DNA of 64,000 nt from an uncultured Pseudomonadota bacterium (GCA_963843375.1 CAWJKT010000008.1:64001-128000); one strand, 5' to 3'; shown: positions 19,671-38,579, counted from the first letter of the stretch. Numbers and translations are program-made. Notes: generated by a model not told the origin, from the letters alone.

Positions 19671-19693
19671 GTGCTTGGAACTTGGTCCAGGTT

Positions 19694-20964: not shown

Positions 20965-22056
20965 TCACTTGCTTTTTGCGGCTCGTGTCATATTCGTGTC
21001 ATTCAAGGCCTTCGCCTTCTCAAGGGCCGCTAGGCGGTCCTCCCGATCCACACGGTCATACTTACGAAATACCGCATGGGTCTTGTGACCCGAAATCGAC
21101 ATGATGACCGAATCGCTTACTCCCGCCTTCCTCAGGTTCGTCACCGCGCAATGTCTGAGGTCATGGAAACGAAAATCCAGAATCCCGGCATGTCGGCAAG
21201 CCTTCTTGAAGGCGGTCTTAATGCTCCCCATGGTCTGGCCTTTCCAGGTAAAAACATAGGGACTTCCAAGGGTCCGGGGAATCTGCTTCAAGAGATCTAA
21301 AAGCTCCCCTGTCAGCGGTACTTCCCTTTTCTCTTGGGTCTTCGTGTCCTCGGCTTCCAGGTAAATGACCCTGTTCTTGAAATCCACCTGCTCCCAGCGC
21401 AACTTCAAGATTTCACCGCAACGCATCGCGGTCAAATAAGCCAACTGAACGATGGGCTTGAGGTGATTGGAGCATTTCTCCAAAAGCCTCCGGTATTCCT
21501 CCGGCTCCAAAGTGCGGCTTCGGAAGTTCGCTTTGAACTTCTTCACCCCCGCTATCGGATCCCGGTCAATCAGCCGGTTCAAAACCGCCCGGTGAACCAG
21601 GGCCTTCAGGATGGCGATATCCAGGTTCAAAGTCCCCTCGGCGACCGGCCTGCCGGGGTGGGACAACTGACCCTTACTCTTCCGGTGGACCAAAAAGGCT
21701 TCCACCAAATCCGGGCTCAAACTTTCCAAAGGACGGTCTCCAAAAAAGTCCTTAAACAAGTTGATCCGGTAGATATCCCTGGTGTGGCTTTTCTTCCTGG
21801 CTTTTGAGTAAGCCAAAAAAGCATCCGCCGCCTCGAAAAATCCCACCATTGGTTTATCGGAAGCTAAATACTTCTCTTCCGCCATATCCCCCATATTCTG
21901 GGCCAAAATCTTCTTGGCCTGGGCTAGGGTGATATTTCCCAACCGTACCCTTTTCCTCTTCCTCAATCCATTCTCCCGGACGAAATAGTCCAGGAAGTAA
22001 CCCGCCCCATCCTTGCGAAGATGCTGCGGCAATCCATGAACATTAGGTTTAGCCAT
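20965..22056 (-). CDS. Tyrosine recombinase/integrase
   Basis: TAMRCGEI, KTQEKR, RFHDLRH, ISGHKT, RKY catalytic pattern; AGGAGG RBS before ATG 22056. Confidence 0.95.
   Translation of the reverse strand: MAKPNVHGLPQHLRKDGAGYFLDYFVRENGLRKRKRVRLGNITLAQAKKILAQNMGDMAEEKYLASDKPMVGFFEAADAFLAYSKARKKSHTRDIYRINLFKDFFGDRPLESLSPDLVEAFLVHRKSKGQLSHPGRPVAEGTLNLDIAILKALVHRAVLNRLIDRDPIAGVKKFKANFRSRTLEPEEYRRLLEKCSNHLKPIVQLAYLTAMRCGEILKLRWEQVDFKNRVIYLEAEDTKTQEKREVPLTGELLDLLKQIPRTLGSPYVFTWKGQTMGSIKTAFKKACRHAGILDFRFHDLRHCAVTNLRKAGVSDSVIMSISGHKTHAVFRKYDRVDREDRLAALEKAKALNDTNMTRAAKSK
20983..21004. repeat. Putative integrase arm-type sites, left end
   Basis: TCGTGTCATATTCGTGTCATTC, 21/22 identical to 38266-38287; extra CGTGTCATTC at 20906-20915. 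Confidence 0.7.
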
Positions 22057-22607
22057 ACTTCCTCCTAATGTCCCCAGCGAAATCATGATAGCAGGGGGCA
22101 TCAAGTTTTCAAAATACCCAAACACTTAATAAATAAAACGGCAGAAAATGTCGTATTACCTTTCCACAGCACTAATAACGCTGGGAAAGAAAAACACCAA
22201 GTCCTTAGCGTGTTTTGGAATCTATCAAAAAATAGGTTTTTAAAACACGTAGAGTTTTCTAGGTGTTATTTAAAAAGCTTACTAAAGGCTAAATTTAATA
22301 AAAGGGCCTTATAAGGTCCCTTTTTCAAAAGACCGCCAAAAGAGATAATTCAAAAATACGGTAATCGGAGACCGTGTTTTTGTGAACCATCTGTAGATGT
22401 TCTCTACACAAGTTAAAAACGTTTTTTTTGCAGTATTTTGAACAAAGGAGAGAAGAAAAAGACGGGGGAAAGAACCCGTGTTTCGAAACTGACTTTTTAG
22501 GGAGAATAGGTAGTTAAAGCTGTTATATCGCGAATCGCAGTCAAACTTGCGAATACTTAATCAGCAATTTTTTATTACTTTGACCCGATAAGACAAGTTT
22601 CATTTTT

Positions 22608-23462
22608 TTAGGACTTCCGAAATTGGTTTAATGTTTTCATCAAATCTGAAATTTTCCAAAGAATTACATTAGCTTGTTCAAGCTCAACTTGCTTAAAATT
22701 ATGAGCGAATTCGTTTCGATAATATTTAAATATCATTCGCAATTCACTTCGCAATGTTTTCAAGTGAGAGCCTATATATTTATCTTCTTTTAAATTATTT
22801 TTTATAAATAATTCGATTAGTTTTTGCCCATAGCTGTTAATTTTTGAAATTTTTTTAATCTCATTTTCAAAAATAATAAAGCCTTCACGAATGGCTGTGT
22901 CATACCTTTTAATCTCGAGATAAGGTTTAACCCATTTCGATACTTTTGGGTTTATGTATTTTCCCGATTCCTTCAATAAATCCTTTAGAGCCAAAAATCC
23001 AGCCCTTGTCACTTTTAAACCATCTTTTCCAATATCAGCAAACTCATCTGTATCGTCAGGATCATAAATAGGTTTCGGAACTTTCCCATAACTTCCATTG
23101 CTCAACTTGAAATACAACTCCTCATGATTTCCCCATTTCTTCAATTCCCAATTGAAACTATTTATTTCTCTAACCCCTGAAACATATCGTCGTTTTTGAA
23201 GGTCAATTAAATCTTCATGCCAAACCGCAACGTGATAATTATTTTCGTCATAAGGGTTTTTGCCTGGTTTCCCAACGCAAAATAGCATGCACTTATCAAT
23301 ATCATCAATCGCGTTGAAAACGGTTCCACGAGGATATAAACCAAAGGTTAAAAGTCCTATAGCCCAACCATGTTCAATAGGATAAACCGGCCAATCCGCA
23401 TGGATGGCAATAACACCTTTTGAAGTCCAGCCTAAATAACCGGGATGCTTAGAAAGTTTCAA
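22608..23462 (-). CDS. Hypothetical protein with C-terminal TIGR02391/HEPN-like domain
   Basis: YDTAIREGFIIFENEIKKIS...G..LI...RNEFAH (RxxxxH); low GC. Confidence 0.6.
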   Translation of the reverse strand: MKLSKHPGYLGWTSKGVIAIHADWPVYPIEHGWAIGLLTFGLYPRGTVFNAIDDIDKCMLFCVGKPGKNPYDENNYHVAVWHEDLIDLQKRRYVSGVREINSFNWELKKWGNHEELYFKLSNGSYGKVPKPIYDPDDTDEFADIGKDGLKVTRAGFLALKDLLKESGKYINPKVSKWVKPYLEIKRYDTAIREGFIIFENEIKKISKINSYGQKLIELFIKNNLKEDKYIGSHLKTLRSELRMIFKYYRNEFAHNFKQVELEQANVILWKISDLMKTLNQFRKS

Positions 23463-23688
23463 ATGTCTCCGCTTTCTAAATCATTTTCTCGGCTTTCTAC
23501 TTCACCTTCAAACTTATACTGATTTACAAGTTCTTCCTCTACCCACCACCCAAGCATAATTTCTGGAACAGAACCAAAAGTAACAGCCTCTACTTCATAA
23601 ACTTGAACCTCCTTTTTGACCCTCTCTAACATCTCACTTAACCAATTTTCATCAACCTCAAGATCAATTGCTGTCCCTTTCCACATTT
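23459..23688 (-). pseudogene. 3' remnant of an unidentified gene cut by IS21
   Basis: Acidic open frame WKGTAIDLEV...ESGDI ending in overlap with the next start; begins at the IS boundary. Confidence 0.5.
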
Positions 23689-23788
23689 TGCTAACGCCGG
23701 TCGAAAAGTGTGACGGTGGGCGGTCCAAAAGTGTGACACCCCCCGCCTTCCATACGCCTTTAGGGTATATGGTCGTTGGTTGAACCTA

Positions 23789-24562
23789 TCAATCCTTCTT
23801 GTCTTTACGTCTCAGCCGTTTCTTCGCTTCCACCAGCCTGAAGCTTTGGCCGTTGGCCTCCAGAATATGCACCCGATGGGTCAAACGGTCAATAAGGGCC
23901 CCCGTCATCCTTTCGGAACCCATGATTTCCACCCAGTTTTCAAAGGGAAGATTCGTCGTTACCATCAGGCTGGTTCGCTCATAGGCCTTGCTGACCACCT
24001 CAAACAGCAACTCCGCTCCCGGCTTGGTGAACGGTACGTAACCCAATTCATCCAAAACGATTAGGTGGAGCCTGGCCAACTGCCGATGGAACTTGGCCAA
24101 TTGTTTTTCCTCGCGGCGCTCCAGAAGTTCGGTGACCAGGCCGGTCACGGAGAAGAACTTCACCGCCCGGCCCTGACAGCAGGCCTGGTAGGCCAGCGCC
24201 GTGGCCAAATGGGTTTTACCTGTTCCCGAATTGCCGATCAGCAGGACGTTTTCTTTTTTGTCGATGTACTCGCCCCGCATGAGTTCCCGCGTCAATTCCT
24301 GGTTGATCGAAGGCTGGGCCTTGAAGTCGAACGTGTCCAAAGTTTTGAGCACGGGAAAGTTGGCGTCGCGGATGCGCCTCTCCTTGGCCCGGCGTTCCCG
24401 GTCTAGAAGCTCCATCTCGGCCAATTTGAGCAGATATTGTGGATAGTCACTGCGTTCTGTGCGGCAGAGTTGGGCCATCTTGTCGTACTCCCGCTGCATG
24501 GTAGGCAGCTTGAGTTTTTTGAGGTGGTGTTCCAGCAAGAGCGTCTTTTTGGATTCGCTCAC
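23789..24562 (-). CDS. istB: IS21 helper ATPase
   Basis: GNSGTGKTHLA, LDELGY, TTNLPF..W, DRLTHR. Confidence 0.95.
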   Translation of the reverse strand: MSESKKTLLLEHHLKKLKLPTMQREYDKMAQLCRTERSDYPQYLLKLAEMELLDRERRAKERRIRDANFPVLKTLDTFDFKAQPSINQELTRELMRGEYIDKKENVLLIGNSGTGKTHLATALAYQACCQGRAVKFFSVTGLVTELLERREEKQLAKFHRQLARLHLIVLDELGYVPFTKPGAELLFEVVSKAYERTSLMVTTNLPFENWVEIMGSERMTGALIDRLTHRVHILEANGQSFRLVEAKKRLRRKDKKD

Positions 24563-26070
24563 GCTTCACCTCCCACAACCATCAGCTCCCGGTAGGCCGA
24601 AAGATCCGTCCGGGCCACTTGAACCCGTCGTAAGTGCTCACGACCGGCAAGGCTGAAGGTGGTCAGCCTGTAATCCTCCCTGGGGTAGAGCAACTGGGCG
24701 ACGGCGTCCCGGGTATAGATTTCCATTCCCACAGCTTTCTTCACCGCACGGGTGAGCCGCGAGAGGGAATATTTCTCCAAGAGGCGCAGAGTCTTGATGA
24801 ATTCCCGTGTCCCTTCACCATGGTGCCTTTCCATGGCTTCCATGCGGCGGCGCAGGAGGGGAAAACTTTCCGGCAGGTTCCAGTCTTCCAGGGGCCGGGC
24901 ATGATCGAGGGCTCCCGGTTTCCCTTCCAAAACCGCTAAATAATGCACCGGATTGAAGACCACACCTTCCTTTCCCCAAAGGCGATCGTGAGTCGCGATG
25001 AGCCTGTCCTTGTGGAAGATATCCACTCGCTTGATGTACCCCTTCACCACCACCGGATGGTGTGCCCATTCGGAAGGAACGGAATAGTCGTTGGTGTCGA
25101 AACGCACGAGGGACAAAGACGTGGCTGTCGTGGACTGTTTCAGACAGGCGTCAAAGGGAGTGGCCGGCAAAGGCCTGAAATGGGCCTTATCCTCGTCTAG
25201 AAGCTGCACCTTGGGTAGACCCTTCCCCCGCAATTTGCGCTTCAAGTCCTCCCGGCATTTCACCTCCAACTGCTCGTTCAGTTCATCCAGGTTTCCCACC
25301 TGTGGAACCGGGACCATGAAGTTCAGGCGGACGTATTTCACCCCGCCTTCCACGACGCCCTTTTCATTGCCACGGCGTATCGTGCAGAAGTGGTGATCGA
25401 AGAGGTAATGGCTCTCCAATTGCTGGAAACTTTTGGTCAAAATCCGTTGGTGTACCCCGGCGATCTTCGTCACGAGGGTCTTGGCATTGTCGTAGCTGAT
25501 CCGCCAGGGCACGCCGCCAAAATATTCGAAGGCCCGGATATGGCCTTCCCACACGAACTCCGTGCTTTCCCGCTCAAACATCTGGACGAAAAAAGCATCC
25601 GAATACGGAAGTGCCATCACAAAGAAAGGCCGTTTCACCAACACACCGTTGAGTTTGACCAGGGCGTGTCCAAAGTCCACCTGGGCCTCCCCGGGCCGAT
25701 GGATCAAAGGCACGAAGACCTCGCTATTCTTTTGCTTGAACCCCTGGACGGCTTTTTTCACCTGGCTATAGCCGCCGGTGTAACCATCCTCATCCCGCAG
25801 GCGCTCAAAAATGCGCTTGGCCGTATGTCGTTGTTTTTTGTGGACGTGCTTGTCGTCCTGAAGGATTTGCTTGATGCGGCCCAGGAAGGGCCCAATCTTG
25901 GGCTGTGACCTCTCCCGGTACATTCGGTAGCCCGGGGGTTGGCTATGGGCGAGTATTTTCTTGAGGGTTTCCCAGTGGATGCCTTCTTCTTCCATCACCT
26001 GGCGTTTGGAGACCCCCTCCACCAGGATTTTCTTGCGGATTTCGGTCCATCGGTCCATGTCCTTGTACAC
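24559..26070 (-). CDS. istA: IS21 transposase
   Basis: HTAKRIFERL, PGEAQVDFG, YDNAKT, EKGVVE, FDTNDYSVP. Confidence 0.95.
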   Translation of the reverse strand: MYKDMDRWTEIRKKILVEGVSKRQVMEEEGIHWETLKKILAHSQPPGYRMYRERSQPKIGPFLGRIKQILQDDKHVHKKQRHTAKRIFERLRDEDGYTGGYSQVKKAVQGFKQKNSEVFVPLIHRPGEAQVDFGHALVKLNGVLVKRPFFVMALPYSDAFFVQMFERESTEFVWEGHIRAFEYFGGVPWRISYDNAKTLVTKIAGVHQRILTKSFQQLESHYLFDHHFCTIRRGNEKGVVEGGVKYVRLNFMVPVPQVGNLDELNEQLEVKCREDLKRKLRGKGLPKVQLLDEDKAHFRPLPATPFDACLKQSTTATSLSLVRFDTNDYSVPSEWAHHPVVVKGYIKRVDIFHKDRLIATHDRLWGKEGVVFNPVHYLAVLEGKPGALDHARPLEDWNLPESFPLLRRRMEAMERHHGEGTREFIKTLRLLEKYSLSRLTRAVKKAVGMEIYTRDAVAQLLYPREDYRLTTFSLAGREHLRRVQVARTDLSAYRELMVVGGEA

Positions 26071-26202
26071 TCCTTTTCCTCCTGGAGGCGTGGTTTTCAT
26101 CTTTGAAAACCCACATCTTCCAGGGAATTTCGGGGAGTGTCACACTTTTCGACCGCCTTTTTGCCCTCTCTAGACCGTCACACTATTGGACCGGCGTTTA
26201 CA

Positions 26203-28284
26203 AATTTTTTTACTTTCAACATAGTCACCATGGGCTTCTGTTAAATGACCATAGATTTGGCTATACCGATTTCGAAATCCAAAAAGTGAATGCGTTTCAC
26301 CCTTAAATGGCATTCGAGCAAATTTATCAACAGTGGCCACAATAATTGACGGACGAGTCCTATATATTTCTTCGTCAACAACCACCACGGGCAATCCCGC
26401 CTGATTTGACTTGGCAGAGCTGAATTCACATTCCTTATTGTTGCACCATATAAGTGTACGTTGGGTCGCTTTATCAGGAACATATGTGTTCGGTTCCGGG
26501 ACACCCTTGTCACTAACAAGTATTGAACCGCACCGAGGACAAGAGACAAGTTGAATCGGGCTACCTGTGCTAGGCCTTCTTCCTTCCCTGGCCTTCTCAA
26601 TTACCGCTGCTGAATCCGAAAAAGTGTTAGGGGTTGTTTTTTTACCAACCCAAATTCCAATTCGAAATGGTTCTTGGCCAAAAATTTTTGGATTTTTATA
26701 CCTTATAACTTCACATGCCGCGATTAATGCCGCGGCCCGTTGAAACTGTTGAACCGTGAGGAGTCGAAGCGTATACCTCATAATTACGCTGACTCCGGCA
26801 CCTGCCTCCATGCCATAACGATTACCTCTTAAACGCCTTAAAGCTATTACAAAAGCAGACAATCCAAGATAAGCCTCGGTTTTACCGCCCCCTGTTGGAA
26901 ACCAAAGTAAATCGACTATCTCTCTGTCGCTACTGTTTTCATCAGCTACTCCGCAGAGATTCAGCAGTATGAAACCCAGTTGAAAGGGACGCCATGTTCG
27001 ATTTTTTGGGAAGTCATATTCATACGGCGTACCTTTTACCACTCCCGCCTTACGGTTGGTGGCGGCCCAAAGAGAGTGAATTCGCTGATCCCACATTGCT
27101 CTGTTAGAAAATTTAAATGCTTCAAAAACATGTTCGTCTGATTGAATAAGCAATAATCCATCTTTAATGCGCGAAGCGCAAACCCTACAAAGTTTAATAT
27201 TTATTTTCGAAACTTCATAAAACAACTTGTTTTCTTTTATTTCTGGCTTCTCACTTTCATTTTCAATTTTATCAATCCAAGATTCATACTCATCTACCAT
27301 CGGCTTTAATAATTTTATTAGTTCAGAAGCGGAACTCATCTCCGCCAAGAATTTCATATCTAACGTTGCTCCTCCAGTTTTGTCTGCCGGAGCAATAAGC
27401 ATTGGGGTCTCAAAAGAGGGAATAAATTCGGTAAATACTGCTGTTGTTCTTTTTCCACCATCAACCGGCTCTGCCCATCCAGCAGACACTCCATGACCTG
27501 TCGCGAACTCCCTAGAATCTCGATAAAGCAATTCGTTAGTTGAGCTTTCATCATCTTCGGAAACATAGGTTGGTTCTGGCCGATAATCCTTTGCAACAAA
27601 CACAGGACTGTTATTAGAAGTAGTTACATACACGGAGGGTTGATAAATCCAACGTTCATCTTTTGACCTGTCCCCTAATTGACCTTTTGTGCGTCGATTG
27701 ATCAAAAACAGGCTTACAGCTCTATGCCCCCCAAGATCATGAACAACACCCTCAATAGATATTTCCATATCATCAATTTGTGAAATAGATACACCGGGAG
27801 GATTCGAAGCGGAGGGGGATAAAGTTATTTTTGATATTGCCCCGGCTTTAGCAACTTGCACTCCATCAACCACGCCACTAATTGGGTATCTTTTCCAAAC
27901 GTACTTTCCTAATCCATCTTTTTCTCGTTTGTAATTGCCCCAGGCAACCCTAACTTGTAATGTTTTATTCTGAGAATCGATAAGAAAAGACAACCCGAAC
28001 GAAGAGGGGTTAAATCCAATTATAAGGGGTGGTTGCGGTTCCTCTTCTCCATCCTCCTCCGAGCTAACACCCATTGCGAGTTTTTCATTTTCAGTTTGTT
28101 CGATCAAACCGTCCTTATCATTCTCATCAATTCTGGCCGGCGCTAATCTTCCAACAACGTATCTGGAAGTTGGATATTCATTTATCACCTCATCGGGTGC
28201 GCCTGGCCCCATGAGCTCTTTCTTCAGCGCAAGGAGCAATCTATCTCTTACCTGACGTTCATTATTTGATGGTGCCATAGTCAC
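26203..28284 (-). pseudogene. drmA: DISARM helicase DrmA-like, C-terminally truncated by IS21
   Basis: WRPFQLGF, DLLWFPTGGGKTEAY, MRYTLRLLTVQQFQR, ATVDKFA; Walker B and helicase C-terminal motifs absent. Confidence 0.8.
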
Positions 28285-29531
28285 CTTATAGCCGAAACAA
28301 ATTGTGGCGTTCTTTTACGAGCACCTGGACCAAGACCAGTACCTGGATGATCTTTGTAAATTCCTCTAAATTTGAGATAACTTTTGGGGACTGGTTTCGT
28401 CACTACCGCTCGGGGACAATTATTTCTTTTCGAGGGTATTAGTGTTAGATTTTTTCGGACATTTTCCCCAAATAATTGACGTCTAATTTCTAAACCAAAT
28501 AATTCGCCAATGGCACTCGGCACAGCATTACCAATTTGACATTGTGCTGAACGACGATCACCCTGAATCTCATACCCCACCGGAAATGTTTGAAGGCGGC
28601 AAAGTTCTTCTATTGATAAGAGTCTATTTTTCCAATGAAAAGGTCCTGTTGCTGGCCCAGGCATCGCGGGTATTGTCCATGAGGGTTGGTTTTTGGCAAG
28701 TTTGAGGAGGAAAGACCAATAGCGTGTTCTCCAACCAAAAAGTGGTTCGCCACCATTTTGACGGTTTCGAGAAGTGTGCCAAAGATAATTTCGACCTTCC
28801 GGAATACTCTTAAGCAAATTTGCCCATCTTCCAGTCAAATTAAGAGCTGAAGGCCAAGTAGAAGTATCTAAATCACCTATTGCGTCCCATGCAGTACGAT
28901 ATGGCTCAAGACCATTAGAATCATCGTGCGTTGACTTTGGAGGGTCTATAGTCTTCCCAGTAATACTTGCGAGTATAAAAACTCTTTCCCGAAACTGCGG
29001 CACGCCATAACTGGCAGCATTTAAATGAATAACTTGCAACCGATAATTACAACCTACACGTTTATTAATAGCCTTGATTCCACGAATTAAAAATTGAAGC
29101 CCTTCATCTTTGCCGTTAAAAGCCAATCCCTTAACATTCTCAAGTAGAAGAACTTTTGGCAAAATTAATTCCACGGTTTGAAGAAATGCTTTGAGCGTCT
29201 TTGAGCGAGGATCGCTTAGACGCGGCGAGTCTCCACTAGACCAAAAAGCCGCTTTAGAAAAGGGTTGGCATGGCGGGCCACCAGTAAGAAGAGATACTTT
29301 TTTCGGCCTCATCCTGGACTGTTTTAAAATATCATTTGGTTTCAACTCGTAAATATTTCCGGGCTCCGCAAGTATCCATCCTGGCCTGTTATGCATTAAA
29401 GTTTTTCTTGCATCTCCATCAATTTCTACACAAAGTCTATTCTTAAATCCTGCGGCTTCAAATCCGAGATCTAACCCTCCTGCCCCAGTAAATAAAGAAA
29501 TAACAGTTCGTTCAGTTGAATGAACATTCAT
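28281..29531 (-). CDS. DNA cytosine-5 methyltransferase (DrmMII-like by context)
   Basis: LFTGAGGLDLGF, GGPPCQPFS, ENV, PQFRERV, RLQTFP, QIGNAVP. Confidence 0.92.
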   Translation of the reverse strand: MNVHSTERTVISLFTGAGGLDLGFEAAGFKNRLCVEIDGDARKTLMHNRPGWILAEPGNIYELKPNDILKQSRMRPKKVSLLTGGPPCQPFSKAAFWSSGDSPRLSDPRSKTLKAFLQTVELILPKVLLLENVKGLAFNGKDEGLQFLIRGIKAINKRVGCNYRLQVIHLNAASYGVPQFRERVFILASITGKTIDPPKSTHDDSNGLEPYRTAWDAIGDLDTSTWPSALNLTGRWANLLKSIPEGRNYLWHTSRNRQNGGEPLFGWRTRYWSFLLKLAKNQPSWTIPAMPGPATGPFHWKNRLLSIEELCRLQTFPVGYEIQGDRRSAQCQIGNAVPSAIGELFGLEIRRQLFGENVRKNLTLIPSKRNNCPRAVVTKPVPKSYLKFRGIYKDHPGTGLGPGARKRTPQFVSAIR

Positions 29532-29622
29532 ATAATTATTGGTTCCTTCATTTTGGATACTTTGATTTTTGGAGTTAATTTGTCTAGCAAATTTTACTTT
29601 GATTTATCCTCTAATCCCATCT

Positions 29623-30099
29623 TTACTTTGAGTCTTCCAAAGATCCCTCATATTCCGAATATTCCTCAGTCATCCATTGGTTCCCGCAAACTGGGTCTTT
29701 GCATTCCCAAAAATGACGTATGGTTTCCTTGACCATTCGGACCTGTTCCAGTCGTTTGAGCTCATAAGCATGGTCCGCGTCGATAAAGCTGTTGGAGTAG
29801 ATAGTCCCTTCGTCGATCCTTTCCACCGTTTCCAAAGATTCCTTTTGTTCCACAACCTCGCTTTTAACAAACCGTTTCTTCCAGAAACCGCTGCACTTGG
29901 GACACCGGCTTTGATAGGCCTTTACCGCAAACCAAACAAACGGCTTTAAGGTAACGAAGTAGAGTGGATAAAGAACGAAACACAGGGCTTTCAATGCAAG
30001 CCCCACAACCCCCAAGGCCATTCCCAAAAGAAATAGGGCCGCCAATAAGGCGACACCACATAACAGCAAACAAGTGAAAATGTCGGAAAGTGTTTTCAT
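29623..30099 (-). CDS. Membrane-anchored protein with CxxC/CxxxxC zinc-ribbon
   Basis: Two N-terminal hydrophobic helices; CPKC and CKDPVC. Confidence 0.55.
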   Translation of the reverse strand: MKTLSDIFTCLLLCGVALLAALFLLGMALGVVGLALKALCFVLYPLYFVTLKPFVWFAVKAYQSRCPKCSGFWKKRFVKSEVVEQKESLETVERIDEGTIYSNSFIDADHAYELKRLEQVRMVKETIRHFWECKDPVCGNQWMTEEYSEYEGSLEDSK

Positions 30100-30117
30100 G
30101 GTTTCCCCCTTTCCGGG

Positions 30118-30603
30118 CTAGATCAGCCCGGCTTGCCGGAATGAAAAGTGCCCCTCATGGGTGACGATCAAATGGTCATGGACGGCAATCCCCAAGGCGC
30201 GGGCGGCGGTCACGATCTGCCGGGTTAATTGCTTATCGCCCTCACTTGGTTCCAAGCTCCCGGCTGGGTGGTTATGCGAAAATAAAATCCCGGTGGCGTC
30301 CAGTTCCAGGGCCTTCTTGAGAACCTCGCGGGGGTACACGGCGGTATGGTCAACGGTGCCTTCCTGGTTCAAAACCACGTCCAAAACATGGTTCCGGTGG
30401 TCCAGGTACATGGTCAAGAAAGCCTCATTGCGCTTCCCGCCGATATACTTACTGAAATATTCAACCGCGTTCTCCGGGCTTCCGATAACTGACCCCCGCT
30501 GGTAGGTTTCCCTGGCTTCCGCCCAACTCACCGGCGGAACCGTCGGCGGCGGCAAAGCCCCAACCTCAAATTTAAATTCAACTTGTTCCTTGGAATCCTT
30601 CAT
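30118..30603 (-). CDS. radC: RadC-like JAB domain protein (short mobile-element type)
   Basis: GTVDHTAVYPREV, SHNHPAG, PSEGD, DHLIV. Confidence 0.9.
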   Translation of the reverse strand: MKDSKEQVEFKFEVGALPPPTVPPVSWAEARETYQRGSVIGSPENAVEYFSKYIGGKRNEAFLTMYLDHRNHVLDVVLNQEGTVDHTAVYPREVLKKALELDATGILFSHNHPAGSLEPSEGDKQLTRQIVTAARALGIAVHDHLIVTHEGHFSFRQAGLI

Positions 30604-31095
30604 GTTCCCCGTCCTTTCCGAGGGAGAACGCCCTCCGGGGGCGGCCCTCAAAATTTGAGGGGCCGACCACGGGGGGTAAGGGTGGACGAAACATCGGGCG
30701 ATAGCCCAAAGTGGAGTCCACGAGTTGTTATGGCCGTGGGGAAAGTTTCTGCTCATGGCCGGTTTTGGCGATTCATGAGCAAAACCGAGGGCGAAGGGCG
30801 GGCCTTACTTGGCCCGAACGAGGTAGCGGCCTTTAGGCCGCCCCGAGGCTCGCTTTTCCCACAGCCATAACTTCATTGAATGTTTAAATGATTTTCAGGA
30901 AAGGGGTGGGCTGAAATTTATGTTGAGCTTCACATAAATCTTGTTATGTGAAGTGGTTAGTTATGTGAAGTCCGGCCAAATAAACTCCTGTTTTTCGTTG
31001 TATGTCTGGCCATCCGTCGTTTTTCACTTCACATAATTCGGGTTGGTAGACTGCTCTTCCTCTTGGAACTCAAAGAGGAGAAAAGGAGCACTACC

Positions 31096-32358
31096 ATGCT
31101 TGAAACCTATTACAAAGATAAAAGGACTTTAGCAAATTTCCGCCGGGGACCCTTGGGACCTCATTTTGATGGATTCGCGGATCACTTCACAAAGAAGGGA
31201 TATGCTCCAAGTTCGGTCCCAGCCATGCTCAAACGCTGTTACCACTTCAATGCTTTTCTAATGGATCAAGGAATTTCCGATGTTCGATCCATCAACAGGT
31301 CGTTGGCAGAACTATTTCTGGTTGTTTATTTACTGAGAATCAAAGGCGTCGGTGTTTACAAGAAAAAAGTCGAGACAACTACGAAATATTTTTTGAACCA
31401 TTTCTTTATCTACCTTATTGAAACAGGTGTACTTCATCCTGAAGTCTCCAAGCAAGTTGTCACACCGTATAGCCAACTTATGGAACCCTATTTGAAGTAC
31501 CTTCGTGAAGAACATCGAGTCACCGAAGCTTGGATTCAAAGAATCCGAAAAAGACTCGTGCCGTTTCTTGAAGGATTGGGGGATCAGGCCAGGCCTGAAG
31601 CGATAAAGTCTTTGCGAGCCGAGGATATTGAGAAATATATCAAGAAACTTACCGCTGATCGTCGGCGAGACTTACGGTGTTTTGTCGGTGTACTGCGTGG
31701 ATTTTTGAGATTTTGCGTCCGGCAAGGATACATGGTTATGGACTTATCCGGCATGGCCCCCTCCGTCCCCTCATACCGTTTATCCAGTCTTCCCAGAGGG
31801 ATGGATGATTCCATGCTCAAACGTGTCCTCCATTCGGTTCCTTTGGAAACTCCAAGCGGGTTGCGGGACTATGCCATCCTGTTGATCATGATGACCTATG
31901 GTATTCGTGGAAAACAGGCCGCTGAATTACTACTGGGGGATATTCATTGGGAGCGGTCTACCATCCGAATACGCGCCCTGAAAGGCGGCAAAGATGTAGA
32001 ACTTCCTCTTTTGGAGTCGGTGGGTGAAGCTATTTTAAGTTATCTACGCCACCGCCGAAAAAGTCCGCTTCGGGAAGTTTTTCTTTTGAATCGGGCTCCG
32101 TTCCGACCTCTTACATGGCGAACTGTTGAACACATGGTTCAAAGGTATCTGATCAAGGCCGGTGTCAAAATACCCAGAAGTGGTGCAAGCACTTTCCGCC
32201 ATTCCTGGGCCATTCGAGCGTTGGCCCATGGCAATTCGATGAAAGCCATCGCGGATGTGCTAGGCCACAGACGCCTGGATAACACCTTTATCTATGCCAA
32301 GGCCGATCTCAAAACCCTTCGACAGGTCGCTATGCCGTGGGTGGAGGTGGCCTCATGA
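31096..32358 (+). CDS. ritA: RIT tyrosine recombinase A
   Basis: RDYAIL, YGIRG, KGGK, TFRHS, VLGH, IYAK. Confidence 0.88.
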   Translation: MLETYYKDKRTLANFRRGPLGPHFDGFADHFTKKGYAPSSVPAMLKRCYHFNAFLMDQGISDVRSINRSLAELFLVVYLLRIKGVGVYKKKVETTTKYFLNHFFIYLIETGVLHPEVSKQVVTPYSQLMEPYLKYLREEHRVTEAWIQRIRKRLVPFLEGLGDQARPEAIKSLRAEDIEKYIKKLTADRRRDLRCFVGVLRGFLRFCVRQGYMVMDLSGMAPSVPSYRLSSLPRGMDDSMLKRVLHSVPLETPSGLRDYAILLIMMTYGIRGKQAAELLLGDIHWERSTIRIRALKGGKDVELPLLESVGEAILSYLRHRRKSPLREVFLLNRAPFRPLTWRTVEHMVQRYLIKAGVKIPRSGASTFRHSWAIRALAHGNSMKAIADVLGHRRLDNTFIYAKADLKTLRQVAMPWVEVAS

Positions 32359-33359
32359 CAACCCACCTTTTTCAAAGTCCAGTGGCCTCCAAAATGTATT
32401 CCTTTTTGGAAATACGCCGTGCTTTGGGACGCCAAGCGGACACGGACCAAAAAACACTTCGGTACATTGACCGTTTCCTGGCGAATGTCCTCCAACCAGG
32501 GCAACCCATCACGCGGGAGATCATCCATCAATGGCTAAAAACTATTGAGCCGTTGAGTGTGGTTACCCGAATTAACCGGATCAGCACCTTCCGAAAGTTC
32601 TGCCGTTATTTGAATCATTTTGATCAGCGGACACATTTGATTCCACGCGGTCTCACTCCTAAGCGGACCCGTCCGGTTCCTTACATCTTTACCGATGAAC
32701 AAATACGAGCCGTACTGGCTGCCGCCAAACGACTCCGCACAAGAAGTTCATTTCTTCCTTTCCTGATTTCGACCTTGATTGGCTTGCTTTACAGTACAGG
32801 GCTACGGATCAGTGAGGCGTTGAAATTGACTTTGGGGGATATTGATCTCAAGCGAAGGCTTCTTCTGATTCGTCAGACCAAGTTCCAGAAGTCTCGTTGG
32901 GTTCCCATATCCGTATCCACTGCCAAATCCTTGCGTGATTTTCTTGAGCGGCGGCGAAAAAGTGGATTCTCAACGGTTGAGACGGCACCGGTTTTCATCA
33001 ATCCTTACAAGAACGCAAATGGAAGACCATATAAGTACGATAGATTTTGTGGCGTTTTCCTAAAAATCCTTCGGGAAGAGAAGATTCGTGGGCCCAAGGG
33101 AGACCGGGGACCAAGGGTTCACCACCTACGACATAGTTTTGCCGTTCACCGATTGGCCAAGTGGTATCGGGAAGGGGCGGTTATTTCAACCAAGTTGCCA
33201 CTGCTTTCAACTTACTTGGGTCATTCCAGCCTTGTCGGCACGGAGGTTTACTTACAGGCCACCACCGACCTGTTGGAGGAAGCCAACAGGCGCTTCCACG
33301 ACAACTGCGCCTTTCCAAATTCACAGCAAAAGCCTAAAGGAGGCGTCCATGCCCAATAA
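32355..33359 (+). CDS. ritB: RIT tyrosine recombinase B
   Basis: TGLRISEAL, TKFQKSRWVP, HHLRHSFA, LSTYLGH. Confidence 0.88.
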   Translation: MTTHLFQSPVASKMYSFLEIRRALGRQADTDQKTLRYIDRFLANVLQPGQPITREIIHQWLKTIEPLSVVTRINRISTFRKFCRYLNHFDQRTHLIPRGLTPKRTRPVPYIFTDEQIRAVLAAAKRLRTRSSFLPFLISTLIGLLYSTGLRISEALKLTLGDIDLKRRLLLIRQTKFQKSRWVPISVSTAKSLRDFLERRRKSGFSTVETAPVFINPYKNANGRPYKYDRFCGVFLKILREEKIRGPKGDRGPRVHHLRHSFAVHRLAKWYREGAVISTKLPLLSTYLGHSSLVGTEVYLQATTDLLEEANRRFHDNCAFPNSQQKPKGGVHAQ

Positions 33360-34359
33360 CCTAGCTTCTCCAGTCCGAAACTTCTTTGAGCATTACCTGA
33401 CCGGCGAAAAAGGTTTGAGTTCTCATACGATCCTGGCTTACCGCGACACCTTGAAACTACTTCTGAGGTTTGCGGCGGATCACCATCGAAAGTCATGCGT
33501 GGATCTGACGGTGGAGGATATTTCCGCCGAAACTGTCCGGCTATTCTTGGTGCACCTGGAAAAAATAAGGGGTAATGGAGTCCGAACCCGCAATACCCGG
33601 CTAGCGGCCATCCATTCTTTTTTCCGCTACTTGGCTTATTGGGAACCCCGGTTTCTCGTAGCTTCCCAGGAGGTATTAGGGATTCCTTTCAAACGACACG
33701 CCAGTCCCGTGATGGGATATTTGAACCAGGAGGAGATGGTCCATTTATTTAGTCATATTGATACTGGAACATCTCAAGGCAAACGCGACGAAGCCGTTCT
33801 GCGGTTGATTTACAATACAGGTGCACGGGCCCAGGAACTGGTGAGTTTGGACGTAAACCATATACGATTCAGCCGTCCTTATTTGGTTCACATCCTTGGA
33901 AAAGGAAGAAAAGAGCGGACATGTCCTCTCTGGTCCGAAACTGTGGATTCACTAAAAAATCACCTGGAAGAGCGCCATGTAAAGACTTCAGACCGCGCTC
34001 CTCTTTTCGTGAATGCCAAGGGACAGAGGCTTTCCCGTTTCGGTTTACGGCACCTTATTACCCGGCGGGTTGCCATCGCGGCCAAGACCTCGCCAACCCT
34101 TCTCACTCGGAAGATTGGGCCTCATACCTTCCGACACACAACAGCCATGCATTTGCTTCAATCCGGTGTCGATCTCAACATGATTCGATCATGGCTTGGG
34201 CATTCATCGATTGAAACCACCCATGGTTACGTTGAACTCGATTTGGAGATGAAACAGAAGACGCTTCAGTCATGCAAGAATCTCCTCCCAAAAATGGAGA
34301 AGGGCGGCCCTTCATGGCAACAAGACCAGGGCATCCTGGACTGGTTGGCACGCCTCTAA
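33349..34359 (+). CDS. ritC: RIT tyrosine recombinase C
   Basis: TRNTRLAAIHSFF, TGARAQE, GKGRKER, HTFRHT, WLGH. Confidence 0.88.
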   Translation: MPNNLASPVRNFFEHYLTGEKGLSSHTILAYRDTLKLLLRFAADHHRKSCVDLTVEDISAETVRLFLVHLEKIRGNGVRTRNTRLAAIHSFFRYLAYWEPRFLVASQEVLGIPFKRHASPVMGYLNQEEMVHLFSHIDTGTSQGKRDEAVLRLIYNTGARAQELVSLDVNHIRFSRPYLVHILGKGRKERTCPLWSETVDSLKNHLEERHVKTSDRAPLFVNAKGQRLSRFGLRHLITRRVAIAAKTSPTLLTRKIGPHTFRHTTAMHLLQSGVDLNMIRSWLGHSSIETTHGYVELDLEMKQKTLQSCKNLLPKMEKGGPSWQQDQGILDWLARL

Positions 34360-34782
34360 TTATGTGAAGTGCGGGAGGGTCTTCACCACAGGATTTTCCC
34401 GCATTTTATCATTCCAATCCGATCAACTTCACATAACTAACCACTTCACATAACAAGATCACCCGAACGGTCTTTGTGAGGGAAGCTTGGCCCAGGGGGA
34501 AAGCCTAGAAAAAGGGATTCTGTACCATCCCTTTTTCGTTCCCCCCATAAACGGCACTTTAAATCCAAAATCCACGCTACCAGGAAGGACTAACCACCAA
34601 GTCTTAACCAGCTTTACCAACCACCTGCCTTACCGCCCATACCAACCCACCTACCACCATTACCCACTACCACCCCCAACATTCCAACCTACCACTCCTT
34701 GACTCCTGCTCCTGTTTTTCCTTGCTGTGTCTCTAATCAGTTCATCTCATCTACACCTCAAGTCAATTTCTCAGATTCATAA

Positions 34783-34879
34783 GGTTTTCCAATGAGGAGA
34801 GGGCGAACCCCCCTATCGTTTCTAGCATCCTCACTTGATGCGTAGATAGGGGGGTTCGCCATCGGATCATTGGAAAACC
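34783..34879. other. Long interrupted hairpin (~97 nt) in non-coding DNA
   Basis: 13-bp outer stem GGTTTTCCAATGA/TCATTGGAAAACC, 16-bp stem GGCGAACCCCCCTATC/GATAGGGGGGTTCGCC, inner GCATC/GATGC. Confidence 0.7.
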
Positions 34880-35163
34880 GACCCATTCAAAGGGAAATTT
34901 TCATTTTTGGAGTTCCATGGCGCGGAACTTTCATTTCCATGGGACATCGACTTTCTCCGCTTCCCTATTAGCTTTTAGGACTTCACGAGTGTTTCTGGTG
35001 CCTCAAATTCCCTTTAAATTCAATCGGACATTTCTCAAGACACCATGGCAAGGCCCCGGAAGTGGGCATTGGTCTTCAGGGGTATAGGGCAACTTTACAA
35101 GAAGGGAAAAAAGCGGTACCTTTTCCGGCTTTGCCAAAATAAGGGAAGTCGAGGTAAAGGAAG

Positions 35164-35402
35164 ATGAGCCGTTCCAGAAGGCATACCCCAAAACGTGGGA
35201 TCACAACCGCCAATTCCGAGAAGTGGGACAAGCGATTAGCCAACCGCACCCTTCGCCACCACAACAAGATCCTGGTCAATAAGGCGGGGGGGAAGACGCC
35301 CTTCCCCTCAAAATGAACCAGGTCATGACCACTTGGCACATGAGCAAGGACGGGAAGATCCATTTCGACCCGAGGAAAGAACCCAAAAACATGAGAAAGT
35401 AA
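35164..35402 (+). CDS. Small basic hypothetical protein (~79 aa) with frameshift in G7 run; missed by ORF track
   Basis: MSRSRRHTPKRGITTANSEKWDKRLANR...WHMSKDGKIHFDPRKEPKNMRK when G7 near 35286-35292 is read as G8. Confidence 0.55.
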
Positions 35403-35480
35403 CGTTTAGCGATGGGACAATGAATAAGCGACGGGGGACTTATTAACGCTTAAATTATTTAACAAAAAGAGAAAAGAGAA

Positions 35481-36701
35481 ATGATTACTCGTTACAAAAC
35501 CGCAATTATTGATTTATGCATTAAAATTCAAACTATCAATAACTCGCCCTGGAATTCCGGGAAACTTTGTTTTCTTGTCCAACAAACGATTTTAAAAAAA
35601 ATTGTTCATGTCGAGCTAAAGATTCAAAAACTAAAAAGCCGAATTAAAGAAGTAAATACACAGTTCAAAATCAATCGAGGAACTCCAAACGAAATAGAAA
35701 AAGCCTCAAAATTAAATATCGAATTAGAAAAATTAGATCGAAAGATCAAAGATTACAAACATTTGCTAATCGTATTTAGAAGTCTCGGCGATTCTCTGGC
35801 CTTTATTTACATAGATAAATACGACATAAAACAATTTATTTTCAAAGAAAGTGCAGGTTACATATCAGGGAAAGAGGGACTGAAGCTCGAATATGACATA
35901 TTAAAACTAGCCTTTAAAGCAGGCGGAATCGCGCTCCTAAACGATCTTACAAATTGTCTAAGGCATGGTGACATAACCCTAGTTCGGCCAGACTTACCAC
36001 CTGTAATCATCGAGGCTAAAACAGGCACAAGAGAATTTTCTAAAGGGGCAAAACAGATTGAAAAGACTAATAAGATTCTTGATTTTCTAAACAGCGGTGA
36101 AACGACCAGAGAAAATCATTTCGTGAGAAGAATGGAAATCAAAACCAAAGAAATAGATAACAGAGTTTTGCTAAACGCTTTAGTCCAAGAAGCTTTGACA
36201 ACAGGGGATGCATTTGCAACGGCTGAAGCCGGCTTGCATTATTATCTGGCGACAATCCCGAAAATCGAAAACGTCAAAAAAATTATGGCCAGTTTTAACA
36301 GCCAACCGATATCTGCTTTTTTGGATTCTAATCAAATGCCTTATATTGGCTATTACCCTTTATCGCTAATACTAAAAAATCCAAATGCATATTTTAGTTT
36401 TTGCCGAGAAGAACTACATATCGTGGTTTTCTTTGAGCCAGCAGTTATAAAACAAAAATTCGAATCTTTAGGATTTCGGATCGAATTTCATAACAGCGGA
36501 GATTACGAGTTCAGCTTGTTTGCGAAAGACGGAATGAATAAAGAATTTGGTCCATTAAATATCAGCAAATTCTTTTTCGGTCGAATGATTATTGAGTTCT
36601 TAAGTTTGGATTGGTTTTTGAACGAATTAGTTAACGTCTATCGCGGAACGCCTTTAGCGGATTGGCTAGCTCAAAAACCAGATCCCGGGCTCCAATCATA
36701 A
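35481..36701 (+). CDS. Hypothetical protein: N-terminal coiled coil + PD-(D/E)XK-like motif
   Basis: Heptad-rich residues ~35-100; GDITL...IIEAKTG; low GC. Confidence 0.6.
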   Translation: MITRYKTAIIDLCIKIQTINNSPWNSGKLCFLVQQTILKKIVHVELKIQKLKSRIKEVNTQFKINRGTPNEIEKASKLNIELEKLDRKIKDYKHLLIVFRSLGDSLAFIYIDKYDIKQFIFKESAGYISGKEGLKLEYDILKLAFKAGGIALLNDLTNCLRHGDITLVRPDLPPVIIEAKTGTREFSKGAKQIEKTNKILDFLNSGETTRENHFVRRMEIKTKEIDNRVLLNALVQEALTTGDAFATAEAGLHYYLATIPKIENVKKIMASFNSQPISAFLDSNQMPYIGYYPLSLILKNPNAYFSFCREELHIVVFFEPAVIKQKFESLGFRIEFHNSGDYEFSLFAKDGMNKEFGPLNISKFFFGRMIIEFLSLDWFLNELVNVYRGTPLADWLAQKPDPGLQS

Positions 36702-36711
36702 TCTGAAATAA

Positions 36712-37080
36712 TTACAAAAGGTTTTTGAAATCCTTTTTCAAGAACGGTGAGACTTTCCCGCCTTGTATTACCTTATCTAATAATGCATCCGACATATCGG
36801 CATCCGGTGTGGCGACGCGCATTGAAATGGCTACCTCGATTTTTTGGACATCTGAAAGGATTGCTTCGCGGTAATTAACTACGGATTCTTTCCTAATGTA
36901 GGGATGTTCGCGAGGTAGCAGAACACAAGATTGGTCCCTACCCTCTTCATTTTCCGTAATATTCACCAACAAAACCTTACCTTCCTCATCGGGCTCAGTT
37001 ATTACAAAATACAAATGAGGAGGATTTAGTGGTGAACCAGGATTTCTTAGTTGGACTGTACTTTTGATTTGGATTGGCAT
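36712..37080 (-). CDS. Putative toxin (PemK/MazF-like) of Panacea TA pair
   Basis: PHLYFVI...VLLVNIT...CVL...HPYIRKESVVNY; 11 bp after antitoxin. Confidence 0.55.
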   Translation of the reverse strand: MPIQIKSTVQLRNPGSPLNPPHLYFVITEPDEEGKVLLVNITENEEGRDQSCVLLPREHPYIRKESVVNYREAILSDVQKIEVAISMRVATPDADMSDALLDKVIQGGKVSPFLKKDFKNLL

Positions 37081-37091
37081 TCAAGAGGCAC

Positions 37092-37637
37092 TTACGAGCC
37101 AAAAACTGCATGGGCAAAGTGGAAATCAGAAATCTCTTGCTCGATCTTCTTTATCTCTTTCGGTTCTTTTCCAATAAAACTTAATAGTTTTTCATTGGCA
37201 ATTGGTAACGAAGAGCCGCTTGGGTCTTCCCATTCCTTTATGTGGGTATGGCAATAGTCGATCATTTCTCCAAAAGTATACTTTTTGAATTTTTTATCAA
37301 TTTCATTTAGAAGTTTCATTTCCGCTTCGGAGAGTTCACCATCACCCGGATCTTGAACAAGAACGGTATTAAATCCATCTTTCTTAATTGAGCAAAGCCA
37401 ATACTTGTTTTCAACCTTGCCTCTTATCCAATCATAAACTTCACTCAATACTGGCCCATTAACCATGGACACATAGCTTCCACCGGTGATAGGCCGGTTC
37501 CACTTCTTTAGAGCTTCCCTGTCGGCAAGATACATAAGCTTAATCATTTTTGTGTAATTGATATGCTTGCCGTTACTCTTGATAAAGTAGGCAGCCACTT
37601 GTGTTGCTTTTAATGGGTTTAAGTGAAAAATAATCAT
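37092..37637 (-). CDS. Panacea (DUF4065/SocA-like) antitoxin
   Basis: KMIKLMYLADR, PITG..Y, NGPV.SEVYD, YCH....EW. Confidence 0.85.
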   Translation of the reverse strand: MIIFHLNPLKATQVAAYFIKSNGKHINYTKMIKLMYLADREALKKWNRPITGGSYVSMVNGPVLSEVYDWIRGKVENKYWLCSIKKDGFNTVLVQDPGDGELSEAEMKLLNEIDKKFKKYTFGEMIDYCHTHIKEWEDPSGSSLPIANEKLLSFIGKEPKEIKKIEQEISDFHFAHAVFGS

Positions 37638-37737
37638 GAGTTACTCCTGAAACTTAGTATATATCTCTAACGACAGATACGGAAATTTTCAATAGCATGA
37701 CCGAATTAAGGTTATTTTTGCTAAGAAAACCAAATAG

Positions 37738-38035
37738 TGGTGGGGCATCCTGGATTCGAACCAGGGACCAAGGCATTCAGGTTTGTGCCGCTTACGCGAC
37801 TCCCCGGACTATCTCTTCACCCAAATATAAGGGTGTGGGACGCTTAAACGCGGTGATTAAGGGGCCTTAACCCCTCCGCTAGTCTCTGCACCTTCCCCCG
37901 GTGTACCGAAGGCTTGGCTCAGGATTGCCCGTCACCGGGTTTCCCTGAATTCATCCCATTTCATTCCCTGGCTTTCACCAGGGATGCACAGCTTCCGCTA
38001 TGAGTGCCCTGCTCTAACCGCTGAGCTAATGCCCC
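37738..38035 (-). tRNA. tRNA-Ile2(CAT) with group I intron; exon 1 38035-38000, exon 2 37777-37738
   Basis: Spliced 76-nt GGGGCATTAGCTCAGCGGTTAGAGCAGGGCACTCAT|AATGCCTTGGTCCCTGGTTCGAATCCAGGATGCCCCACCA folds as a cloverleaf; G1-C72 pair excludes fMet; resembles E. coli ileX; elongator Met not formally excluded. Confidence 0.9.
37778..37999 (-). ncRNA. Self-splicing group I intron, 222 nt, no ORF (IC3-like)
   Basis: P1 CAU|AGC-GGAA-GCU-GUG with U.G at splice site; P GAAUUCAGGGAA, Q AAUCCUGAGC, R GUGCAGAGACUA, S AAGAGAUAGUCC; P3 UGGGAU/GUCCCA; terminal G. Confidence 0.93.
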
Positions 38036-38051
38036 AATTTTTAAGAGTGCC

Positions 38052-38081
38052 ATTCTAAGACAGAATGACCCTTTCCAACAA
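38052..38081 (-). promoter_or_regulatory. Candidate sigma70 promoter for island tRNA
   Basis: TTGTTG-N18-TAGAAT ending 16 nt before the tRNA 5' end. Confidence 0.45.
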
Positions 38082-38265
38082 ACTATCAGCCAATGACATC
38101 CATAAGACATCGCCTTCTGAAAGTATTACCCCATAAAGATTTCTGGTGTCTTTCAGGGCAGCATTACTGCCATGGCTTTAAATTCAATCGCACTTTCGAG
38201 CCTTTTTAAACCATCAAGCACGGCACCACAACTGCCCTGCTTTAAGTGGAGTGCCCTGCTCTGCT

Positions 38266-38340
38266 TCGTGTCTTATTCGTGTCATTCGTAGTGCGCTTTT
38301 ACCGCCACTGACCGCCACTTACCATGCTTTACCATGCTTT
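38266..38340. repeat. Putative att arm: arm-type repeat plus four tandem 10-mers
   Basis: TCGTGTCTTATTCGTGTCATTC (38266-38287); ACCGCCACTG ACCGCCACTT ACCATGCTTT ACCATGCTTT (38301-38340). Confidence 0.65.
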
Positions 38341-38341
38341 C

Positions 38342-38391
38342 AAAAAAAGGCCCTTGCCCGTGACCTTCTTAAAAGCGTTACGGGCAAAGGC
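38342..38391 (-). terminator. Terminator-like hairpin inside island end, downstream of orphan tRNA 5' half
   Basis: Minus strand GCCTTTGCCCGT...ACGGGCAAGGGC followed by T7. Confidence 0.55.
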
Positions 38392-38460
38392 GTTTAAAAC
38401 GTGCTGGGGACAGTTAAATTTTTACTCACGGACTTCGGGACCCCGCCGAACCCTCCAAAA

Positions 38461-38500
38461 CATTATGAGTGCCCTGCTCTAACCGCTGAGCTAATGCCCC
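38461..38500 (-). pseudogene. 5' half of host tRNA-Ile2(CAT), intronless; island attachment junction
   Basis: GGGGCATTAGCTCAGCGGTTAGAGCAGGGCACTCATAATG then non-tRNA sequence; sits right after rpoD. Confidence 0.92.
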
Positions 38501-38520: not shown

Positions 38521-38551
38521 AAAAAAGAAGGGCGCGAACTTCGCGCCCTTC
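38521..38551 (-). terminator. rpoD terminator
   Basis: GAAGGGCGCGAA/TTCGCGCCCTTC stem with T6. Confidence 0.75.
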
Positions 38552-38579
38552 TCATAGTTTTACTATAGCAGAATACGGA

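Follow-up and report, generated by a model that had tools for sequence, protein, structure and literature searches.

What a self-splicing-type intron is doing in a tRNA gene carried on a mobile island, and whether such an island could account for the way these introns are distributed, are the questions raised by this locus. Group I introns of bacterial tRNA genes have been known since about 1990, and their scattered distribution and the absence of a clear benefit are unexplained so far. The DNA analyzed here is a 64,000-nt stretch (the window) from the metagenome-assembled genome of an uncultured Pseudomonadota bacterium (the source genome, G000; 4.05 Mb in 32 contigs, 80% complete, 4% contamination). 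The original prediction had placed a compact group I ribozyme in the window at the Azoarcus-type site, directly after a CAT anticodon, and had suggested that the mobile island around it could be a vector for such introns.

The intron was identified utilizing Rfam and ARAGORN. Covariance model RF00028 gave one match in the window, at 73 bits (E 1.3e-16), which exceeds the curated gathering score of 50; the same intron was the single RF00028 match in the whole source assembly. The Rfam match was over-extended at its 5' end, running into the upstream spacer. With introns allowed, ARAGORN called a 76-nt tRNA(CAU) at c[37738,38035], whose positions 36 and 37 are separated by a 222-nt intron (ctcat-intron-aatgc). 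Run with default settings (introns off), it called zero tRNAs in the 64,000-nt window. Its other intron calls in the genome (Glu, Ser, Arg, Gln and Ile-UAU) were rejected as unsupported, since RF00028 finds a single intron there.

P1 is formed by exon CAU and intron AGC paired with GCUGUG (C34-G49, A35-U48, U36.G47, A37-U46, G38-C45, C39-G44) and is closed by a GGAA loop; the final intron base is G. P2 is capped by a GNRA loop and helices P3-P9 are present. The minimum free energy of the fold is -90 kcal/mol (z -3.4). Covariation was analyzed in an alignment of the intron gene and 11 relatives (12 sequences), onto which P1-P9 and the cloverleaf were drawn by hand. In this structure 98.4% of 1005 cells were paired, against at most 44% in a control with the pairing partner slid by 1-3 columns. 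Two-sided changes were found in 32 of 84 pairs, a number reached by 0 of 500 shuffles. Covariation was seen in P2 (7 of 8 pairs), P6a (4 pairs), P9 (4) and P1 (2). The 5 pairs of P7 are invariant, so that covariation is uninformative on this helix either way. The splice-site U36.G47 wobble was present in 12/12 aligned sequences and the terminal G was invariant. An extra hairpin between P7 and the 3' strand of P3, absent from the Rfam consensus, was conserved with covariation and was also found in an Azonexus intron. No homing endonuclease ORF was found in the intron; the overlapping frames are chance frames of at most 57 aa, and 222 nt is too short to encode such an enzyme. A mobile intron driven by a homing endonuclease was ruled out for this reason.

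The score above the gathering threshold, the 36/37 placement by ARAGORN and the covariation together establish that the group I intron is real and occupies the Azoarcus-type site behind CAU, and the P1, GGAA loop, terminal G, lack of an ORF and position (37778-37999) originally given all hold, on the minus strand. A 247-nt contig of 93% identity in RNA library X15 runs unspliced across the 3' exon into the intron, of which it covers a part; the contig may derive from precursor RNA or from DNA.

The intron-bearing gene has a G1-C72 pair and is therefore not an initiator tRNA. Utilizing an intron-less relative's gene with identical exons as the query, the best E. coli match was an annotated tRNA-Ile with the anticodon loop CTCATAA (84% over 70 nt). 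Of the two other CAU tRNAs of the genome, the initiator is recognized by C1xA72 and by the three G-C pairs of its anticodon stem; for the other (G000:C1:252180), elongator Met is what elimination leaves. In E. coli the latter is matched best by tRNA-Trp (78%), which neither names it nor makes it Ile2-like. It sits 80 nt upstream of a TilS-type gene (G000:C1:252180-252913); the TilS-type (PF01171) gene is present in a single copy in the genome. As judged from these sequence features, the intron-bearing tRNA(CAU) is tRNA-Ile2.

With tRNA-Ile2 as host gene and an insertion at 36/37, the intron belongs to the Ile2.5Ug (Azoarcus-type) class, one of four classical bacterial tRNA intron types, listed as IC3 (Williams 2020, bioRxiv 10.1101/2020.01.27.920355). 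Subgroup IC3 is inferred for the window intron only from this listing and from 72-82% identity to proteobacterial tRNA-Ile2 introns. Species-representative genomes scanned for the exon end and a core block gave at least 120 stretches, most of them proteobacterial and most with tRNA-Ile2-like exons; the proteobacterial loci were mostly miscalled as Gln or Arg by ARAGORN and were reread from the position of CAT. Introns of 202-205 nt were among the loci matched. The suggestion that this is a new small ribozyme is consequently weak, given a surveyed class and shorter members in the same scan.

Features of the locus were assigned across the island and its two junctions (Table 1).

Table 1. Predicted features of the split tRNA-Ile2 locus and its island, in the reading direction of the tRNA
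Feature	Position in window	Strand	Basis or remark
rpoD terminator	38553..38525		just before the attL 5' half
attL: resident intron-less tRNA-Ile2 5' half, positions 1-40	38461..38500	-	ends in core ACTCATAATG, then diverges
P' arm of att site	38036..38460	-	alignment of 5 genomes, motif count
Island-borne tRNA-Ile2(CAU) 5' exon	38000..38035	-	36/36 identical to resident 5' half
Group I intron, Ile2.5Ug type	37778..37999	-	Rfam, ARAGORN, alignment
Island-borne tRNA 3' exon, encoded CCA at end	37738..37777	-	ARAGORN
SocA/Panacea-domain protein and 122-aa partner	37092-37637, 36712-37080	-	Pfam/PADLOC on island ORFs
Three tandem, partly overlapping tyrosine recombinase genes (431, 340, 423 aa)	31063..34359	+	recombinase-in-trio arrangement
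RadC, 158-aa ORF, C5 cytosine methylase (DrmMII/DruM-like), 704-aa DrmA-like fragment	26170..30756	-	
IS21-type insertion sequence (istA, istB)	23789..26100 (region 23688-26181)	-	abuts the 704-aa DrmA-like fragment
Tyrosine integrase, 386 aa, reads towards attR	20965..22125	-	Pfam PF00589, 1.3e-29
P arm	20879..20964	-	one ATGACACG motif at 20906
attR: displaced resident tRNA-Ile2 3' part, positions 31-76	20833..20878	-	contiguous, intron-less

A second copy of the last 32 nt of the tRNA was found in the window, in 20878..20833. There ACTCAT is followed directly by the 40-nt 3' exon (AATGCC...CCA). The resident 5' half (38500..38461) and this 3' part have the core ACTCATAATG in common, an overlap of 10 bp in G000 as in G020, against 9 bp in G003. 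Between the halves lies an island of ∼17.6 kb (38460..20879), with the intron gene inside it, 425 nt from attL, and the integrase gene ending 87 nt from attR. The host tRNA is restored at neither junction, the sequence diverging right past the core, and no tRNA was called by ARAGORN at 38500 or 20878 with introns off or on. A classical tRNA-restoring island, in which attP carries the 3' part of the tRNA, was ruled out because identity stops 4 nt after the anticodon. An intact gene at the locus in relatives, described below, together with two overlapping halves here, indicates that the element cut the resident gene. The exons of the island-borne gene, 36/36 and 40/40 identical to the target, form a spare copy. 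No other tRNA-Ile2 copy was found among the 46 tRNAs of the genome or by BLAST, in an assembly that is 80% complete and may lack a second one. With the spare as the sole tRNA-Ile2 gene, the decoding of AUA would rely on the ribozyme. We conclude with high confidence that the resident tRNA-Ile2 gene was cut at the anticodon loop by the ∼17.6-kb island and not rebuilt, and that the island carries a spare. The split tRNA, the PF00589 integrase and the position of the intron inside the attL end also bear out the mobile island originally proposed.

The motif ATGACACG was found in 5 copies in the window, with 1.0 expected; 5 copies were reached in 0 of 100 shuffles. Four of the 5 copies are in the two att arms. 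The arm-type motif of the P' arm is at 38278-38285, and the copies at 20984 and 20995 fall within the 3' end of the integrase gene. The shared motif suggests a single att site made up of the two arms. Conservation of the P' arm extends over five genomes, and this arm includes a terminator-like hairpin, as well as a promoter-like TAGAAT box ∼18 nt before the spare tRNA.

Further short tRNA copies were observed around the att site. A 13-nt stretch of the P' arm (38261..38249, minus strand) repeats tRNA positions 22-34, and the P' arms of G008, G076 and L290 hold copies of 13-15 nt (positions 20/22-34), which correspond to the left core site plus half of the loop. These copies could represent either a decoy site or what some earlier event left behind as a scar. 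Beyond attR (19655-20725) a Fic/DOC-MarR gene is followed by a 16-nt copy of the tRNA 3' end (19655-19670), which an older element inserted at this tRNA probably left as a scar.

In the cargo, the block from RadC to DrmA looks like the remnants of a DISARM-type defence system, with the DrmA fragment interrupted by the IS21-type element. The contig of this element had a depth ∼5x that of its neighbours in three soil DNA runs, and the element is therefore multi-copy in the source samples. The SocA/Panacea-domain gene and its 122-aa partner, also present in the G003 island, are a probable toxin-antitoxin pair. No virion genes were found by Pfam and PADLOC on the island ORFs. Identity as a temperate phage was ruled out, the cargo consisting of defence, recombinase, IS and toxin-antitoxin genes.

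Recurrence of this architecture was examined across 99 genomes from the phylum. Of these, 18 have a single group I intron, which in 12 cases lies in tRNA(CAU) at 36/37: 10 of the 31 family genomes, plus G025 and G067 from other families. A separate intron-less 5' half was located upstream on the same contig in 9 of the 10 intron-bearing family genomes (G000, G001, G003, G005, G018, G020, G004, G008 and G076) and was not found in G014, an assembly that is 63% complete. An attR fragment beside an integrase ortholog was present in 5 of the 10 (G000, G003, G020, G004 and G076). Integrase orthologs of 76-91% identity occupied the same junction in G020, G022, G076, G003 and G004. G022, with an 80% integrase ortholog and an attR junction, was considered as an intron-less counter-example and dropped. 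Its assembly has neither a tRNA 5' half nor the primary rpoD ortholog (best RpoD match 72%, against 87% in the congener G012), and it is uninformative because the attL side was not assembled.

An intact intron-less tRNA-Ile2 gene was found at the same locus in at least 11 relatives. The order in G009 is dnaG, rpoD, the intact tRNA and then the TIM-barrel gene that in the window lies beyond 20833; in G012 the intact tRNA adjoins rpoD. ARAGORN called the intact intron-less gene in nine further loci, and the G013 gene is intact by sequence. Adjacent exon matches in G071, G072, G073 and G075 come from the search alone. No island-borne intron-less spare was seen among the family genomes and metagenome contigs examined.

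Two genomes retain less of the island. G001 and G018 kept the 5' half together with 1.7-2.7 kb of small island genes; the integrase and cargo were absent, and chromosomal genes directly follow the intron gene. The intron also exists outside the island setting, as indicated by G025 and G067, which carry the intron gene and in which tRNA fragments were not found. In G025 the intron gene is ∼450 nt downstream of rpoD, and no remnant of a tRNA half is visible in the 450-nt spacer after rpoD.

Other arrangements were noted in the same set. Upstream of the split 5' half in G005 (L026, 11190-11420) are two further 108-nt tandem units, each beginning with the first 20 nt of the tRNA. Genomes of other families carry a group I intron of 210-217 nt in a tRNA-Asn(GUU)-like gene (L048, L052, L053 and L056, in G090, G082, G031 and G093). 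A larger intron in such a gene in G083 (L050) may hold a small ORF.

Five metagenome contigs with attL and the P'-arm motif were recovered, some of which may be from the same organisms as the family genomes. All were attL forms, with the intron gene in 4 of the 4 that could be assessed and a circular or attP form in 0 of the 5. A single DNA contig, in X5, joins 20868 directly to 38461 and so skips 17,592 nt; 10 letters at the joint fit either side. This contig was not counted as excision because its shorter side has only 30 nt, and the contig may come from a relative whose tRNA gene is intact.

Outside the phylum, an extra copy resembling the 5' exon was found near the intron gene in 2 of 77 loci, only one of them relevant, and no extra tRNA half was found nearby in the other 75. 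The relevant case is an Azonexus MAG (G099), in which rpoD is followed by a 5' half ending in ACTCATAAT, 180 nt, and then the intron-bearing tRNA-Ile2; a displaced tRNA 3' fragment lies on a separate contig. In this MAG (L154, L226) fliP and fliR follow the intron-bearing tRNA-Ile2, and fliM and fliN precede the 3' fragment. With fli genes flanking both tRNA pieces, the flagellar operon appears to be broken at the att site, which could reflect an inversion, a very large element or a misassembly. Contigs of the viral collection gave 61 stretches, of which 10 were flagged by a pattern test as having tRNA-Ile2-like exons; an extra tRNA 5' half within 6 kb was found in none of the 61. The IMG/VR contigs with tRNA-Ile2-like exons followed by the intron (L234, L236, L243, L247, L250, L251, L253, L262, L263 and L285) may represent phage genes or the host flanks of prophages. 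Among deposited phage genomes the only match was of 121 nt in a crAss-like phage, to the intron core (nt 109-229 of the 298-nt query).

Descent of the intron was compared with that of its hosts. Intron identity to G000 was 96% for G020, which is of another genus, and 86% for G001, of the same genus; RpoD identity ran in the reverse order, at 93% for G001 and 90% for G020. The introns of G001 and of G076, from another genus, were 96% identical. In the intron tree G000 grouped with G020 (support 99/94) and G001 with G076 (support 91/84). As read from these sequences, the intron phylogeny does not follow genus labels, and nearest relatives cross genera. The idea of the island as a vector, for which a comparison of intron and host descent had been proposed, gains from these opposed identities, from the split-tRNA architecture around the intron gene in 9 of 10 family genomes, and from the intron genes kept by G001 and G018 after loss of integrase and cargo. 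Recombination between the 3' exon of the spare and its repeat at attR would delete cargo and integrase and would leave an intron-bearing chromosomal gene, as in those two genomes. Such deletions, leaving the intron gene behind, could seed the patchy distribution of the intron. The locus thereby offers a route of spread in which the intron rides the island and the island then decays.

The position of the intron suggests a reason for its presence in the spare. The integrase very probably acted on a short core, namely the 7-nt anticodon loop CTCATAA inside the 10 bp ACTCATAATG common to both halves. Its target was the resident intron-less tRNA-Ile2 gene downstream of rpoD, of which two halves are left that no longer make a tRNA. 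Because the spare exons are identical to the target, an intron-less version of the spare would match attB perfectly while lying only 425 bp from the attP of the same island. Inserted between T36 and A37, the intron would split the 7-nt crossover overlap and move the right-hand core site by 222 bp. A core broken in this manner would make the spare invisible to the integrase, guarding the island against self-deletion and tandem pile-ups and the spare against being lost upon excision. The four core-flanking octamers (attB and deduced attP), read by eye, appear to share a loose consensus around the 7-nt overlap. Whether the intron shields the spare from the island's own integrase seems to us evenly balanced. 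The whole statement, comprising split resident gene, spare and shielding intron, is the account towards which we lean.

Two accounts would remove the split itself. The intron gene could be the original chromosomal gene and the intron-less pieces unrelated scars of older integrations, as might be read from G001 and G018, where chromosomal genes directly follow the intron gene and no integrase is present. Yet it is the 5' half that holds the native position after the rpoD terminator, with the intron gene 425 nt further on, and the sequence before the intron gene carries the arm motif of the integrase-proximal arm. Relatives have intact intron-less genes at the locus, and even G001 and G018 retain the 5' half and a stump of island DNA. 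Ordinary tRNA islands, moreover, leave displaced 3' fragments, not 5' halves. We consider an original intron-bearing gene very improbable. An artefact of assembly or binning is more improbable still, to the point of being scarcely credible: the genome is incomplete and carries some contamination, and tRNA repeats do break assemblies (for example G002, G006 and G022), but the same order of parts was found on single contigs in 9 genomes and 4 metagenome contigs, and contigs of three DNA runs from two studies cover the island at ≥99% identity.

A different objection accepts the split and the spare as real and takes the intron for a neutral hitch-hiker from a captured allele, with no effect on recombination; island stability would then have another source, for instance directionality factors or the regulation of integrase expression. 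Chromosomal tRNA-Ile2 genes of the ordinary kind harbour the same intron class in many Proteobacteria and in other phyla (the ≥120 stretches of the scan), 75 of the 77 outside loci lack an extra tRNA half, and the G025 gene after rpoD has no fragments beside it. In the available text on actinophages, spares need no intron (PMC10865867), and as precise intron loss is hard, the intron may simply persist. Against this, the spare exons match the target at every one of the 36 and 40 positions. The intron lies within the 7-nt crossover segment, at that site and not at any other of the eight possible loop positions. Every island-borne copy seen keeps the intron, with compensatory changes. A neutral passenger is credible, and we judge it rather unlikely.

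If shielding is true, the intron lets an element carry an exact copy of the gene that it destroys without carrying a recombination target. Integrase, attP and intron-bearing tRNA cassette would then form a compact, self-complementing integration module. A more general form can be stated tentatively. An island that destroys its target may need an exact spare, and beside the att site of that island such a spare might persist only where its crossover sequence is interrupted by a self-splicing intron. Decay of the island would leave the host with an intron-bearing tRNA immune to that integrase family, and the same logic may apply across several phyla. We regard this generalization as possible, somewhat short of probable.

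Within the Ile2.5Ug class the window intron agrees with other members in tRNA isotype, insertion after CAU, U.G at the 5' splice site, terminal G and lack of an ORF. Its core is ∼72-82% identical to proteobacterial members over 100-175 nt. It differs in being carried inside an integrative island of an uncultured soil lineage and, relative to the Rfam consensus, by the extra P7-P3 hairpin. Taken by itself, the ribozyme adds a member to a widespread class that was already known and is not a new kind. A full-text literature search found no paper describing a group I intron in an island-borne spare tRNA, and in the available text of the review by Hausner et al. 2014 (PMC3984707) neither 'integrase' nor 'island' occurs.

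In the text available, the nearest published concepts are archaeal. Archaeal tRNA introns and split tRNA genes have been proposed as a guard against integrating elements (Randau and Soll, cited in PMC4390854), and the Caldiarchaeum tRNA-Thr locus contains a 5' tRNA fragment, a recombinase element and an intron-bearing tRNA (Sugahara 2012, PMC3293823), an order of parts like that of the island. As described in these sources, the protective idea is alike in that an intron at the integration site is proposed to block site-specific recombination. Archaeal introns are, however, removed by proteins, whereas the window intron is a self-splicing-type ribozyme in a bacterium; and the archaeal idea protects a host gene, whereas the gene that would be protected here belongs to the element and not, at first, to the host.

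The closest working parallel is tRNA-dependent lysogeny of actinophages, for which the available text of Guerrero-Bustamante and Hatfull 2024 (PMC10865867) reports experimental demonstration of a ∼10-bp core, a host tRNA that is not rebuilt and a requirement for the phage tRNA. Its examples include Fionnbharth, cluster L and Gaia, as well as the Gordonia phages OneUp and Mollymur at tRNA-Ile2-CAT. A tRNA gene on a plasmid was suspected by the authors of having served as a second attB, and in the text available 'intron' occurs in the reference list only. By that description, the island is alike in its tyrosine integrase, in its ∼10 bp core over the anticodon loop and in leaving the host tRNA unrestored. 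It differs in that no phage genes were found, its cargo being defence remnants, the recombinase trio, an IS and a toxin-antitoxin pair, and in its spare, whose exons match the target in full and whose core is interrupted by a group I intron. The phage system is bench-proven, whereas the island is known from sequence alone. The island-plus-intron-spare design at tRNA-Ile2 thus works like tRNA-dependent lysogeny and is not a member of the phage system; the finding extends that mode of integration to a non-phage defence island in an uncultured soil lineage. The new part is the setting, an intron-bearing spare in an island that destroys its target, with the intron within the att core.
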